DNA of 64,000 bases. It comes from Thermoplasmata archaeon. GTDB taxonomy: Archaea; Thermoplasmatota; Thermoplasmata; Halarchaeoplasmatales; Halarchaeoplasmataceae. A program made the translations under genes and the position numbers. The stretch's first letter is position 1. Every line of letters starts with the position of its first letter. This document shows positions 20,181 through 26,633 of the stretch, piece after piece. A model generated the notes under the pieces. It saw only the letters and a program-made list of their open reading frames with translations, was not told the DNA's origin and made no database searches. The stretch lies in contig PUNK01000015.1 of the NCBI GenBank assembly GCA_003552585.1, positions 12,513-76,512 on the forward strand, written 5' to 3'.

Positions 20181-21374
20181 TCATCCTACGAAACGTATTA
20201 ACAAAGGCAGGATAATAAATAATCCTACCCATGTAAATATGTTCGAGAAAACACCGACAGTGAATATACGTATTATGTTGTTCGATAAAAATTCATTAGT
20301 GGATTCGCTGGCGGTTAAACTTTTCAAATCTGCTATTGAAGGATTTCTTACTCTCAATTCAACATATCCTGCAATCCAGCCCGGACCTATAAGCGTCAAG
20401 GACATGAATGGGGCCAGTAAAAAAGATATTAAAACTGATAATGGATGACCTCTTCCCAATAGTGCTCCTAAAGCAGCCATACCACCTACTGCAAGGAACC
20501 AGTAAAGTAACGATCGCCAGATATTTAGTACATCAGAAAAAATGAATAGGTAAATTGCCAAGCTGATAAAAAATAGTGGTGAGATAAACCTGACTGCTTT
20601 GGTTGCTACCCTTTTGCTTATTTGCTCCAGATGGACGAATGCAGTATCTTCACCTGTGATAGCCTCCTCGGCCATTGTATTCTCTATCTCTTCTTCTAAC
20701 TCTTCTATTTTGCTGGTAGGTACCATCGCTAGTACCTTCCCTCTTTTTGACGACTCGTATATCCTTTTACCCATGTATTCTGTCCTTTCTTTATGTGCTC
20801 GTGAAGCTACTTTTGGAGCAAAATGAGAAAGTTTTTCGATCAAACCACCCACCAAGTCGTCTTCGTACTCTAACTCCTCTATGGATTCCTTACGTTTTTT
20901 AGGTGAAAAAGAGAGCATCGCAGATTTTAGGTACCAGAACATCTTCAACTTCTCGACGGGTGACATCACTCTAAAAGCCCTACCTAGGGTTAGGGAAACA
21001 TCTCTATCTATGAATTCTACATCTACATCCATCTTGTCCGCCATTGGGACCAATTTCGCAATATTTTTTTCCGCATCAAGACCTTTGAATCTCCTAAGAT
21101 TCTCTTTTATAGCATCTGTAAAAGCCTGGTATATTATTTCGCCCGTCTTTCCCTCTTTATAAGAAGGAAGGAGGGCTTTTTCTTTCCATTCCTCCCTACC
21201 CATCGCCTCGAAGCGTTTGTCACATAGTGCAAATGCCACGGTTTCCGGGAGGTGGACATCGATAAGTTGCTCAAGTGTTTTTTCTAGGGAATCTTCTCCT
21301 AAGAAATCAACTCCCACGAGCACTATGTTAGTGTCTAGCTCTTTTACAGCGGGTTCGGACATATGCATATGCAT
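20181..21374 (-). CDS. TraB-family protein with C-terminal membrane domain
   Basis: N-terminus NIVLVGVDFLGEDSLEKTLEQLIDVHLPETVAFALCDKRFEAM follows the TraB/GumN pattern. C-terminal 4-5 TM helices. Confidence 0.5.
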   Translation of the reverse strand: MHMHMSEPAVKELDTNIVLVGVDFLGEDSLEKTLEQLIDVHLPETVAFALCDKRFEAMGREEWKEKALLPSYKEGKTGEIIYQAFTDAIKENLRRFKGLDAEKNIAKLVPMADKMDVDVEFIDRDVSLTLGRAFRVMSPVEKLKMFWYLKSAMLSFSPKKRKESIEELEYEDDLVGGLIEKLSHFAPKVASRAHKERTEYMGKRIYESSKRGKVLAMVPTSKIEELEEEIENTMAEEAITGEDTAFVHLEQISKRVATKAVRFISPLFFISLAIYLFIFSDVLNIWRSLLYWFLAVGGMAALGALLGRGHPLSVLISFLLAPFMSLTLIGPGWIAGYVELRVRNPSIADLKSLTASESTNEFLSNNIIRIFTVGVFSNIFTWVGLFIILPLLIRFVG

Positions 21375-21473
21375 TTAGACTGGGGTAAATATACTTTTTC
21401 AGTTACCTACGATATAGACTAAGAAGTGAAAAAGCTGTATTTATAAAGCAAGAATGTGATAGAGTACCAAAGA

Positions 21474-22076
21474 CTAATCTCCGTAATCGAATATTTTCCT
21501 GTTCTTGACAAGCAGAATAATGGATACGAGTGAAAAAAGGAATGGGGCAAAATAAATCCATATTACTTCCTGGATAATAGTGTCCGAAAAATAAGGCAGA
21601 CCCATCAAAATTACAGATAACATAAGTCCGAGGAAAGAGAATATGGAGCCTGTCAATGCTATCGCAAAAGAATTTTGTTTAAAAGAATGAAAACACCCTA
21701 ATGCAGCTATAAGAAAGAATATAAAAAGGGCTAAGATAGAACCAATCAAAAATGAAAGGAAATCTTGATTTAGACCACCCGATATCCCACCACTTAAAAG
21801 ATAAAAAGCTGGTAGGACTATGAATGGCAAAATCATTAAAAGAAGCACTCCTGCTATTATAACATGAAAACGTACTCCTAAATCATAATTAAAGATAGGA
21901 TAAACGTTTCTTCTCAACTGCCAATGAAAATCTATTTCCCTGACTCTATCACCCTCTACAATATCAGAATAAACCATGCCACAATTTGAACAACCAACCA
22001 TAACTTTCTTTTGATCTTTTGTTCTGAACCAGGTGCGATTACCGCATCTTGGACAGTCCGAAAGGAGATATTCCAT
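21474..22076 (-). CDS. Zinc-ribbon (CPRC..CSNC) membrane protein, unknown function
   Basis: MEYLLSDCPRCGNRTWF...GCSNCGMVYSD followed by 4 TM helices. Confidence 0.4.
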   Translation of the reverse strand: MEYLLSDCPRCGNRTWFRTKDQKKVMVGCSNCGMVYSDIVEGDRVREIDFHWQLRRNVYPIFNYDLGVRFHVIIAGVLLLMILPFIVLPAFYLLSGGISGGLNQDFLSFLIGSILALFIFFLIAALGCFHSFKQNSFAIALTGSIFSFLGLMLSVILMGLPYFSDTIIQEVIWIYFAPFLFSLVSIILLVKNRKIFDYGD

Positions 22077-22240
22077 CAGATTATGTATTCACTAAGAACC
22101 TAATTTCTTTTTCGGATTGTGAAAACATATATAATAGTGATTGGTAATATCCAAGTATCTCAGCAAATATAGAATTTCCCGAAGGTACAAAGATACAAGA
22201 AAAATCTGGGTCTGGCGAACTTCTCCCTCTCCTTTCAAAG

Positions 22241-23890
22241 TTGAAGAAATATACATTTAACGGCTATATAAAGGCAGAGGTTGAAGGACAGTTAGAAGGC
22301 TATCTAACTTTAAAGGATGGTATGCCTCGAAATGCAGTTCTTTATCCACCTGCAGGAAATGAAATAAAAGGGCAGTCAGCTCTCAAAAAGATCAGGGACA
22401 TGGATAACATGGAAGAGCTCAGGATCCAGGTTCACACAAATGTAGATATAGATTCACTAATATCTAGTATCCCTGGTAAAATTCCTGTGCAAGCCATCGA
22501 GGAAAGTCAAGAAGATACGTTGAAGGTGGAAGGAGAGAAGAAGACTGCAGAAAGAAAGAAGTTGGAGGAGGAGCTAGAAAGCAGAATAATAGAACAAGAG
22601 ATGAAGGAATCTAAGGTCGCTGAAAAAGAGATAGAGGTCTACGACACTTTGATCAAAGAAAGAAGAGGTTTGAAAAGTGAAGAACCTGGTAAATTTCCCG
22701 ACAAATTCTCATTTGAGAACTTCGTTGTTGGTCCAAATAACAAGTTTGCATATGCTGCTGCTAGGGAGATTGCTCGATTTCCAGGTGATTCGTTTAATCC
22801 TCTTTTTATTACAAGTTCTTCAGGTTTGGGGAAAACTCATCTTCTAAAAGCTATAGGCAACTATCTAAAGAAAAGAGATCATGATTTGGAAATTAGTTAT
22901 CTTACAGCCTCGAATCTTTCGTCCATTTTGTCTAATCAAGATATAAAAGAGCTAAAAGAAGAGGTAAATAAAGCTAACGTCCTTCTATTGGACGATATAC
23001 AGTTCCTAGCTAATAAAATAGATCTTCAGGACGAAGTATTTCATATTCTAAATAACTTATTAGAAAAAAAAGGACAGGTTGTTCTGACTTCTGATCGGCC
23101 TCCCGACCAGATACCTTCCCTGCAAGACAGGATGGTGACTCGCTTCAAATCAGGGTTGGTAGTTGATATCAGACCACCTACATTTGAAACCAGGGTATCA
23201 ATAATCGATAAAATACTTAAAGAATATGACATCAAAGTTGAGCAAGATGTGAAGGAGTACATCGCTCGCCATGTGAAAAAAAATGTGAGGGAGCTTGAAG
23301 GTGTTTTAAACAGGATTCTGGCCTTTTCTTCCCTCCTTGAAGAAGATATAAGTAAAGAAGTGGTTAAAGAAAGTCTTAAACACTATTCTGACGAGATCGA
23401 TAAAGGTGAAAAGAAAGTCAGTTCGTACACCTTTAAAGTCGGTAGAAGTTATCTGATAGAGGAAAGAAGACCTGATAAAGGATTTGAAATACTTAAAGGT
23501 ATGAGAGATGATGGAAAAACTTACATTTTCTCCCGTCTGAATCCTAATAGGATAAAGGAGGATTATGGAGTTAAAGATAGTGAGATTTATTGGTTGACAT
23601 CCCGTGATAGTCAAAATTATATAACAGTTTCTCCGAACTTAGAGAATCTGTCCTGGCGTCTCGAAGATTTACTAAAAGAAGATGGAGTAGTACTGCTTGA
23701 TGGACTAGAATATCTTATCAGCAATACTGGATTTGAACCTACTATACAGTTCTTGCGACATATGATAGATATGGTATCAGAGACGGAAACTGTATTCTTG
23801 TTGACCGTCAGCCCCGACGCTCTTGAACGCAAGCATGTAAGCATTTTAGAAAGAGAGATGGAAGTAATTTCAGAAGAGGATAGTTTATGA
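22241..23890 (+). CDS. Bacterial DnaA-like AAA+ ATPase (domain III only) fused to a novel coiled-coil N-terminus and an archaeal DUF835-like C-terminal domain
   Basis: FENFVVGPNNKFAYAAAREIARFPGDSFNPLFITSSSGLGKTHLLKAIGNYL (Walker A), LLLDDIQFLANK (Walker B), VLTSDRPP (sensor I), RFKSGLVVDIRPPTFETRVSI (box VII) and NVRELEGVLNRI (sensor II) are near-identical to the bacterial DnaA consensus. No domain IV HTH. The C-terminus VVLLDGLEYLISNTGFEPTIQFLRHMIDMVSETETVFLLTVSPDALE resembles DUF835. Confidence 0.72.
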   Translation: MKKYTFNGYIKAEVEGQLEGYLTLKDGMPRNAVLYPPAGNEIKGQSALKKIRDMDNMEELRIQVHTNVDIDSLISSIPGKIPVQAIEESQEDTLKVEGEKKTAERKKLEEELESRIIEQEMKESKVAEKEIEVYDTLIKERRGLKSEEPGKFPDKFSFENFVVGPNNKFAYAAAREIARFPGDSFNPLFITSSSGLGKTHLLKAIGNYLKKRDHDLEISYLTASNLSSILSNQDIKELKEEVNKANVLLLDDIQFLANKIDLQDEVFHILNNLLEKKGQVVLTSDRPPDQIPSLQDRMVTRFKSGLVVDIRPPTFETRVSIIDKILKEYDIKVEQDVKEYIARHVKKNVRELEGVLNRILAFSSLLEEDISKEVVKESLKHYSDEIDKGEKKVSSYTFKVGRSYLIEERRPDKGFEILKGMRDDGKTYIFSRLNPNRIKEDYGVKDSEIYWLTSRDSQNYITVSPNLENLSWRLEDLLKEDGVVLLDGLEYLISNTGFEPTIQFLRHMIDMVSETETVFLLTVSPDALERKHVSILEREMEVISEEDSL

Positions 23891-24309
23891 ACAAAAGGGA
23901 TGAAAAAATTGCACTCCAGTCTAAGGCGTTCAACCTGTTCGAAGAAGGTAAAGTGCCGGTTGAACTCGTTCAAGAAGGTATCTGCACTAAGGAAGAGGCA
24001 AAAGAATTGTTCATGAGCTATCAAGAACTGCTTAAGTGTGAGGTTGATAAGGAGGTTTTCAATGAAAAACTATCCACTCAGTTGGGACTAATAGGCTCTA
24101 GATTGGCCCAGATTGAACTTAAGATTATGAATTCCATTTTTCTTCCCAAAAGCAGAGAATGCAAAAATTGTGATCACACCGGGATATATGGAGTTGGAGT
24201 GGTATGTCAGCAATGTGGCTCGGTGGAGGTTCATGTTCCGATGGAGATAGGAGAAAACATCGTAGAAAACATAGGTTTCACGCCTTTCAAAGATGAGGAA
24301 GAGGATTAA
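23887..24309 (+). CDS. Small protein with C-terminal zinc-ribbon (CKNC..CQQC), co-transcribed with the DnaA-like gene
   Basis: ATGA overlap with the upstream gene. Motif RECKNCDHTGIYGVGVVCQQCG. Confidence 0.45.
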   Translation: MNKRDEKIALQSKAFNLFEEGKVPVELVQEGICTKEEAKELFMSYQELLKCEVDKEVFNEKLSTQLGLIGSRLAQIELKIMNSIFLPKSRECKNCDHTGIYGVGVVCQQCGSVEVHVPMEIGENIVENIGFTPFKDEEED

Positions 24310-24330
24310 GAAAAGGATTTTGAAAAAAGA

Positions 24331-24371
24331 GGGGGCAGTAGCCTCGATGGTCCCCCGTCATAGCATTTTTC
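24331..24371 (+). terminator. GC hairpin (GGGGG-N16-CCCCC) followed by a T5 run, a likely terminator of the DnaA-like operon
   Basis: gggggcagtagcctcgatggtccccc at 24331-24356, then cattttt at 24365-24370. Confidence 0.35.
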
Positions 24372-24737
24372 CGACCGCGGTGGACGATGGCTCATGGATC
24401 AGCAGGTTGGAGGAAAAATATAAAAGGTTGAGGTATCCAGAGCATCATTATCTCCGCTGAATTGAAGATGTGGAAAAGATCTCCTAAAGTGAATTATCGG
24501 AAATGCTACTTCCATTAATGTTAACCCTCTTTCACAAGGGATCCTGGAAACGGGGATTATTTTTTCCATCATGGCTTACGCCGCCCTCGTGCAATATATA
24601 GGTACATCTACCCTATTTATAATTTATGTTTATTTGCTGAACTTGCACAAAGTAAAAAATTTTGATATTTTGATTGGAAAAACAAATTTTTCTCGATTTT
24701 AGAGGATATTCATCCCAAAAAAACTAATTAACACTCT

Positions 24738-26633
24738 TTGTTCCAAGAACTCATGGGGCGATTCTGCAGTAGGTGTGGGGCCCTTCTTCCTCCTAATAAA
24801 AACGAATGTGTTAGATGTAGCTCCGATAATGTCTATAGTGAACGGGGGATATTCCCTTACAAAAAAGTTAGACCAGTGCAAGAGCAGCTAATGGATGACT
24901 CTCGAAAAGCATTCAACGAGGGAAAAATTATACTCGCTAACGCCCCAACAGGGATAGGTAAGACTGCTGCTGTTTTGACAGCAGCCGCTGAAGTCCTAGA
25001 CAATAAAAAACTCCTCTTTTTAACCAGTAAACAGTCCCAACATAGGATGGCTATAGAAACAGTTAAGAAGATGCCCTCTCAGATCAATGCAGTCGATGTA
25101 ATAGCCAAGCAGCATATGTGTCCATATGAGGAATCGAGGATGCCCTACCCTGTTTTTGAGCAGTTCTGCGAGAGGGTTGGGAAGAAAAGATGTAATCTCT
25201 TCAATACCCAGATGAAATCTGTAGCAGATGAGTTCAAAGAAAAATCATTGCATGTGCATGAAGTTATGAGGCAGTCCAAAAGAGCAAATGTCTGCCCTCA
25301 CAAAACCGCACTCTCTGCAGCAAAAGATTCGGAAGTGTTGGTCTGTGATTTCAACTATGTATTCTCAGATATTCAAGAAAAAATATTTGAATTCTTAGAC
25401 CTAAAATTGGAAAATACCCTATTGATAGTCGATGAAGCCCATAACCTTCCAGATAGAGTGAGATCCCAGCTGGAAAGCAGCATTTCTATCCCACTGCTAA
25501 AAGATTCTTTTAGACTCCTTGACGATGTAAATTCAGAACTTGCAGGATTCGTAAAAAGGTTCTCTTCCCTATTGGGTGATGTAGAAAAAGATGAAAAAAC
25601 AGTGGAAAAGGATTTCATCGATGATATGGTAACCGTAGCCTTACGGGGAGGATTTGGGAGATATGAGAACCTCGAAGAGCTGATGGTTGATCTTGAAGTG
25701 GCCTCCTATAATATTCTAGAGCACGATGCATCTGCCACTGCACCATTGAATCTTTATAATTTTTTTAAAGCTTGGAGAGAAGAGGGAAAAGAAGTATTTA
25801 GAGGTATAGAGAACGACCCCATTACTGTTAGGACCTCATTGCTCGACCCTTCACGTCTGACAAAAAACATCTTTTCCATGGTAGGAGGTGCTATTCTCAT
25901 GAGTGGAACATTGCATCCAGGAGAGATGTATGCCGATCTACTTGGTATAAAAGGTGCTTTAATCAAAAATTATCCCTCTCCTTTCCCAGAAGAAAATCGG
26001 ATGATCTTAAGTGTGAACGGTCTTACAACATCTTACAAACAAAGAGGGATGATGATGTATCAAGCTTATGCTAATGCTATATCCGACGTGGCGAATAACA
26101 CACCCGGTAATACCGCTGCTTTTTTCCCGTCATACGGGCTTCTAAACAGAATACTCGAAAGACTTAGGATGGTGCATCTAAAGAATAAATTGCTAATCGA
26201 AGACCGATCTATGAGTAAAGTAGAAAAAGAGAGTATGGTGGATGCACTTGCACGATCACCAGATAAGTTGTTGATAGCGGTTCAGGGAGGAAGCCTATCA
26301 GAAGGTGTTGACTATCCTGATAATATGCTTTCTGCTGTTATCATCGTAGGAATACCTTTTCCTCCCCCTTCTCTAGAATTAAAGGCTTTAGAAGATTATT
26401 ACACAGATAAATTCGGAGGTAAAAAGGGATACCTTTACACAAGAGTTTACCCTGCCCTTAATAGAGTTCTACAAGCTGCAGGTCGTTCTATAAGATCCAA
26501 AGAGGATAGAGCGGTGATAGTATTGATGGACGAAAGATTTAACAAAACTTTTTATCGATCAGCTATGCCTGATAGATTCGATTATGAATTAGTTGAAGAT
26601 ATGGTTGAAAAAGTTAAAGAGTTTTTTGAATGA
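24738..26633 (+). CDS. XPD/Rad3-family (DinG-like) ATP-dependent 5'-3' DNA helicase with N-terminal zinc-ribbon extension. The likely start is ATG 24753.
   Basis: Walker A ANAPTGIGKTAAVL. FeS-domain cysteines HMCPYEE..FCERVGKKRCNLF..ANVCPHK. DEAH box LIVDEAHNL. C-terminal motifs GGSLSEGVDYPD and QAAGRSIRS. Confidence 0.82.
   Translation: MFQELMGRFCSRCGALLPPNKNECVRCSSDNVYSERGIFPYKKVRPVQEQLMDDSRKAFNEGKIILANAPTGIGKTAAVLTAAAEVLDNKKLLFLTSKQSQHRMAIETVKKMPSQINAVDVIAKQHMCPYEESRMPYPVFEQFCERVGKKRCNLFNTQMKSVADEFKEKSLHVHEVMRQSKRANVCPHKTALSAAKDSEVLVCDFNYVFSDIQEKIFEFLDLKLENTLLIVDEAHNLPDRVRSQLESSISIPLLKDSFRLLDDVNSELAGFVKRFSSLLGDVEKDEKTVEKDFIDDMVTVALRGGFGRYENLEELMVDLEVASYNILEHDASATAPLNLYNFFKAWREEGKEVFRGIENDPITVRTSLLDPSRLTKNIFSMVGGAILMSGTLHPGEMYADLLGIKGALIKNYPSPFPEENRMILSVNGLTTSYKQRGMMMYQAYANAISDVANNTPGNTAAFFPSYGLLNRILERLRMVHLKNKLLIEDRSMSKVEKESMVDALARSPDKLLIAVQGGSLSEGVDYPDNMLSAVIIVGIPFPPPSLELKALEDYYTDKFGGKKGYLYTRVYPALNRVLQAAGRSIRSKEDRAVIVLMDERFNKTFYRSAMPDRFDYELVEDMVEKVKEFFE

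Follow-up and report, generated by a model that had tools for sequence, protein, structure and literature searches.

A DnaA-type AAA+ ATPase joined to a DUF835 domain in Thermoplasmatota archaea, a candidate ATP-controlled assembly switch

An archaeal phylum has kept the ATPase module of DnaA, with its catalytic and arginine-finger residues preserved no less well than in bacteria, and has discarded both DnaA recognition domains. DnaA is the defining replication initiator of bacteria, and archaea are the textbook Orc1/Cdc6 organisms. The gene described here lies in a 64,000-nucleotide stretch of Thermoplasmata archaeon DNA, which we call the window. Its product joins a DnaA-type AAA+ module to a C-terminal DUF835 domain, a combination for which we found no description in the literature. 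We consider it most likely that this protein switches an assembly under the control of ATP and does not initiate replication. A more specific version, for which we put the chances at about even, is that an exapted DnaA motor serves a KaiC-type regulatory network as an oligomeric switch or scaffold gated by ATP and is chromosomal, vertically inherited and specific to Thermoplasmatota.

Results

The initial annotation reported an open reading frame of 549 aa (22241..23890, plus strand), which is present as described and begins with the TTG at 22241 in the database and ORF-finder gene model. Its start has been corrected. Beyond a stop at 22145-22147, 28 in-frame codons from 22157 precede the TTG, and they match the N-termini of homologues. 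Identity to homologue P0002 is 21 of 27 residues, and ISANIEFPEG here aligns with MSPNIDLPEG in P0037. By this match the true N-terminus is upstream of the TTG, leaving the database model short by 28 N-terminal residues. None of the 28 codons is ATG, GTG, or TTG. Translation probably starts at ATC 22157, and ATA 22169 is a possible alternative. A TATA-box-like element lies ~20-30 nt 5' of the probable start codon, and its position suggests a leaderless or near-leaderless mRNA. A sigma-70 promoter scan was set aside as irrelevant to archaea. The AF2 model of the 577-aa form has a mean pLDDT of 88.5. Features of the locus are collected in Table 1.

Table 1. Coordinates of the ATPase gene, its domains and motifs, and its neighbours (window positions)
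Feature	Position	Strand	Remarks
Membrane protein, 200 aa, N-terminal zinc ribbon	21474..22076	-	Divergent; marginal Pfam zinc-finger matches
TATA-box-like element, ACATATATAATA	22126..22137	+	Putative; read directly from sequence
Full DnaA-AAA+/DUF835 gene	22157..23890	+	577 aa if ATC 22157 is the start
Family-specific N-terminal alpha/beta domain	22178..22471	+	Residues ~8-105 of 577-aa form
Charged helical linker	22472..22690	+	73 aa, 47% E/K/R; AF2, composition
DnaA-type AAA+ module (domain IIIa and lid IIIb)	22691..23395	+	
Walker A, GLGKTHLL	22823-22846	+	
Walker B, LLLDDIQF	22982-23005	+	
Sensor I, LTSDRPP	23084-23104	+	
Box VII with arginine finger, RFKSGLVVDIRPP..ETR	23129-23158	+	
Sensor II, NVRELEGVLNRI	23282-23302	+	
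DUF835 domain	23426..23887	+	RecA/KaiC-like alpha/beta fold without P-loop ("inactivated KaiC")
Helical protein, 140 aa, C-terminal CxxC...CxxC zinc ribbon (24160-24216)	23887..24309	+	ORF

Profile searches place the AAA+ core with DnaA, far beyond chance. It matched Pfam Bac_DnaA (E=4.1e-54, aa 154-309) and NCBIfam TIGR00362 (DnaA; E=1.2e-87), the latter with 294.9 bits, below the DnaA equivalog cutoff of 343.9 bits. A phmmer search of PDB sequences found domain III of B. subtilis DnaA (E=8e-58). The pairing of a best AAA+ match to Cdc6/Orc with a winged-helix domain, as expected of Orc1/Cdc6, was not seen. The motifs quoted in the initial annotation are all found in the translation, and Walker A and B, sensor I, arginine finger, and sensor II are all DnaA-type. 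Across 120 members the Walker A K and T are invariant (100%), the Walker B DD pair is 99-100% conserved, and the sensor I D (99%), sensor II Arg (97%), arginine finger (97.5%), and second box VII Arg (93%) follow closely. At 58 of the 76 columns that are at least 85% conserved in bacterial DnaA, the archaeal family has the same residue. Median core identity is 45% between archaea and bacteria and 51% among bacterial sequences, which indicates strong purifying selection on the core. Judged by its residues, the module has kept everything needed for ATP binding, hydrolysis, and contact with the ATP of the adjacent subunit through the box VII arginine finger. In a neighbour-joining tree without an outgroup the archaeal cores stand apart from the bacterial ones with bootstrap support of 50/100.

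The features by which DnaA recognizes DNA and partners have gone. Domain IV is absent: no Bac_DnaA_C match was obtained, and TIGR00362 could be aligned no further than position 359 of its 437; DUF835 occupies the C-terminal place that domain IV has in DnaA. The KH-like fold of domain I was also looked for in the protein and is absent, in agreement with the initial annotation, which had listed domains I and IV as missing. We also compared the residues with which DnaA reads single-stranded DNA (E. coli V211, K243, and R245; B. subtilis I190 and K222), and the set as a whole does not hold in the archaeal family. The I190/V211 position is I or V in 68 of 70 bacterial sequences. In the archaea it is scattered over K, I, N, R, S, and E, with Ser in the window protein, so that in this alignment the ssDNA-reading hydrophobic residue of DnaA is not conserved. 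The R245 position is D or E in 86 of 120 archaeal members. The K222 position is basic in 93 of the 120 (78%), and many long-form members have K or R at the H-motif position; the AAA+ module may therefore bind nucleic acid in some form.

The region upstream of the AAA+ module had been described as a novel coiled-coil N-terminus of ~150 aa. In the AF2 model, ~100 aa instead fold compactly into an alpha/beta domain (pLDDT 90-96), with elements in the order b-a-b-b-b-a-b-a, followed by the charged linker as one long helix (H111-170) of lower pLDDT (49-85). At the linker site long-form relatives carry a conserved helical insertion of ~100 aa, sometimes with a Zn ribbon; hhalign of this insertion against the DZR helical domain was negative. 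Seven N-terminal domain sequences searched against Pfam at E<=10 gave one marginal DUF2226 match and nothing else, and a suspected likeness of the motif pattern to DUF4388/PATAN was not substantiated. With phmmer against 1.84 billion representatives, the domain found its own family and fragments of it and no others.

The C-terminus is a DUF835 domain (Pfam PF05763, E=1.3e-24, aa 410-540). The match scored 87 bits against a gathering cutoff of 33.1 and covered 133 of 136 profile positions, and DUF835 is precomputed in databases for all 120 listed homologues. Thus the initial annotation was right about the identity of this region but put its length at ~190 aa, where ~150 aa is found. The fold is RecA/KaiC-like. 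GK[ST] is absent from the DUF835 region in 76 of 78 members, and the strand that bears the P-loop in KaiC reads GRSYLIEE. Aligned by hhalign with the neighbouring PF06745 ATPases, DUF835 gave a probability of 0.3%, from shallow alignments (Neff 2.8 and 1.7). The DUF835 profile found FlaH (E=0.23) and a likely spurious RsiV among PDB sequences, and no others.

The zinc-ribbon protein encoded next door is a probable partner of the ATPase. Its gene is translationally coupled to the ATPase gene by an ATGA start/stop overlap, as had been noted initially, and a Zn-ribbon gene is directly downstream in 19 of 19 loci examined (the window, L001, L081, L083, L089, L002-L007, L018, L085-L088, and L091-L093). 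In L089 the orthologue is co-directional with an 8-nt overlap; in L001, L081, and L083 it is convergent and has an extra N-terminal extension of ~45 aa. Pfam assigned the window's zinc-ribbon protein to no family. Between the short Zn-ribbon family and the long DZR family homology is not demonstrable, since hhalign aligned an 11-residue zinc knuckle and nothing more. The partner in the DHVE2 lineage combines Zn ribbons with helix-hairpin-helix (HhH) DNA-binding motifs; the latter point toward DNA.

A second candidate partner is a KaiC-like PF06745 ATPase, found in the cluster at 8 of 14 long-form loci (L003, L007, L085, L086, L088, L091, L092, and L093). By tblastn, none of the long-form partners (KaiC-like ATPase, DZR, ~390-aa protein, and CARDB giant) was found in the window or its close relatives, and the window's own clade is thus without a KaiC-like neighbour.

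Thermoplasmatota share the DnaA-AAA+/DUF835 architecture in no fewer than 120 database clusters. Methanomassiliicoccales carry the family. The host contig is archaeal, as borne out by genes for MCM, TFB, Nop56/58, NMD3, and the CCA-adding enzyme in the window. Archaeal housekeeping genes flank the ATPase gene on both sides, with synteny conserved across genera in other Thermoplasmatota, and GC content is uniform (~38-40%). No tRNA was found in the 64-kb window and no integrase near the locus, and repeats at 21300-25000 comprised no families beyond chance and no att-like repeats. PADLOC gave a single match, a marginal P-loop in which no single stretch reached significance by itself (E=8e-4, 16.5 bits), and no match to the zinc-ribbon partners. 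The GC-rich island that the initial annotation placed at 24310-24470 has a GC content of only ~50% and ordinary fold stability and is not conserved beside the gene; Rfam searches at gathering and permissive thresholds and RNA folding found nothing there.

Discussion

We propose that DnaA domain III was acquired from bacteria and put to new use in Thermoplasmatota. In place of domain I the protein has the alpha/beta domain on its charged linker, and in place of domain IV it has DUF835, a KaiC/FlaH-like RecA fold that lacks the P-loop. Binding of ATP would drive the AAA+ modules to assemble with one another head to tail, as happens in DnaA, a step we infer from the conserved residues and the DnaA precedent. 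Hydrolysis dependent on the arginine finger would reset the assembly. Assembly would cluster or re-orient the DUF835 and N-terminal domains, which could then engage the next-door zinc-ribbon protein and, in most lineages, also a small active KaiC-like ATPase. A protein whose ATP-driven assembly engages partners in this way would thus be an oligomeric switch or scaffold, not an origin-melting initiator. Several results count against this reading: the basic residues at the K222 and H-motif positions, the HhH motifs of the DHVE2 partner, the negative alignment of DUF835 with the KaiC-like ATPases (from shallow alignments), the missing KaiC-like neighbour in the window's own clade, and the undemonstrated homology between short and long zinc-ribbon partners.

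Known systems supply parts of this design. The archaeal protein shares domain III with bacterial DnaA, whereas the DnaA-box HTH of domain IV and the KH-like domain I are DnaA's alone. It further differs from DnaA in its appended DUF835, in a host with MCM-type replication machinery, and in a gene that, by the repeat and archaeal ORB searches, is not at an origin. DnaC, DnaI, and IstB, helicase-loader and transposition AAA+ proteins that form ATP-dependent helical oligomers, belong to the same AAA+ initiator clade and show that a DnaA-like module has been turned to other tasks before. Archaeal Orc1/Cdc6 is likewise an initiator-clade AAA+ protein, present in the same organisms. In DUF835 ("iKaiC") proteins and in the REC-DUF835 response regulators that Methanomicrobia and Thermoplasmata possess, the same C-terminal domain serves as the output or interaction module (Galperin et al. 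2018, PMC5847659). Their input is a receiver (REC/PAS) domain or a membrane segment, whereas here it would be a DnaA AAA+ ATPase that is of the active type by its motifs.

A less probable, though serious, contender is a role in replication or other chromosome transactions, as an accessory initiator, remodeller, or regulator working alongside Orc1/Cdc6 and MCM. The protein would form DnaA-like ATP filaments on DNA and make contact through the Zn-ribbon/HhH partner or the altered basic AAA+ residues. A core as conserved as that of bacterial DnaA is consistent with this, as are the basic K222 and H-motif positions and the DHVE2 partner. Gene neighbourhoods offer further hints: L004 and L088 have gyrB-gyrA on the upstream side within a few kb, and the window encodes XPD, MCM, and a Toprim primase. 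However, adjacency to XPD, MCM, or gyrase is not conserved across lineages, and the XPD neighbour, to which the initial annotation had drawn attention, is incidental. The missing domain IV and the unconserved ssDNA-reading I/V also argue against a replication role, and the protein has no PIP or clamp-binding motif. Matches to the archaeal ORB core numbered 12 against 8.6 expected, which is chance level, with none of them near the locus, where there are also no repeat elements and no orc1/cdc6 gene. In Methanomassiliicoccales, moreover, origins are canonical, with orc1/cdc6.1 and ORB elements, and the inventory of replication proteins published for them is complete without a DnaA-like factor (PMC4153887).

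A hybrid control of Thermoplasmatota replication is a bolder proposal that we regard as improbable. Here a DnaA-derived ATP filament, targeted by the zinc-ribbon/HhH partner and not by a domain IV, would assist or gate Orc1/Cdc6-MCM firing or another chromosome transaction. If true, a bacterial initiator motor would be functionally integrated in an archaeal replisome.

The initial annotation had also suggested an Hda-like regulator; on this reading the protein would be a negative regulator, an AAA+ partner under whose influence a different initiator, for example Orc1/Cdc6, hydrolyses its ATP faster. Hda is a single-domain protein of ~230 aa with an N-terminal clamp-binding motif, and its target is DnaA-ATP. 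Hda/HdaA and the archaeal protein are alike in that both are AAA+ proteins derived from DnaA, have no domain IV, and work through protein-protein contacts. Yet the archaeal protein is much closer to DnaA: it reached 107.6 bits with TIGR03420, far under both the Hda cutoff of 194.8 and its DnaA scores. An Hda-type clamp-binding or PIP motif was found in 0 of 78 members, the N-terminal domain and DUF835 have no equivalents in Hda, and archaea offer no DnaA as a target. We therefore hold this reading to be very unlikely.

That the gene is a laterally acquired initiator or a defence or nucleic-acid-sensing ATPase of an integrated element, or bacterial DNA in a chimeric or contaminated assembly, agrees with the bacterial origin of the core and its weak matches to IstB/DnaC-like models, but is effectively refuted by the archaeal flanks and shared synteny, the uniform GC, the lack of integrase, att-like repeat, or tRNA nearby, the marginal P-loop match alone in PADLOC, and the recurrence of the fusion in so many archaeal clusters.

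With the motor kept and the recognition domains lost, the family is a natural experiment on a DnaA motor uncoupled from oriC. If the proposed switch is wired to KaiC-like proteins, it would be a new input module for archaeal KaiC-based signalling, which is poorly understood. Should it act on DNA, initiation parts from bacteria and archaea would here be working together, a rare occurrence. The initial annotation had allowed that the architecture might be already annotated and characterised. Annotated it is, under the automatic names "DnaA ATPase domain-containing", "DnaA/Hda family", and "chromosomal replication initiator protein DnaA", but we found no characterisation of the family in a literature search that did not cover Makarova et al. 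2017 (mBio) on KaiC-like hubs. The last of these pipeline labels misleads and could cause origin predictions to be seeded wrongly.

The 200-aa membrane protein may be a further part of the system. The short-form clade has conserved it as the neighbour upstream, and its homologues in L081 and L083 (BLAST 2e-16 and 7e-27) are placed likewise.

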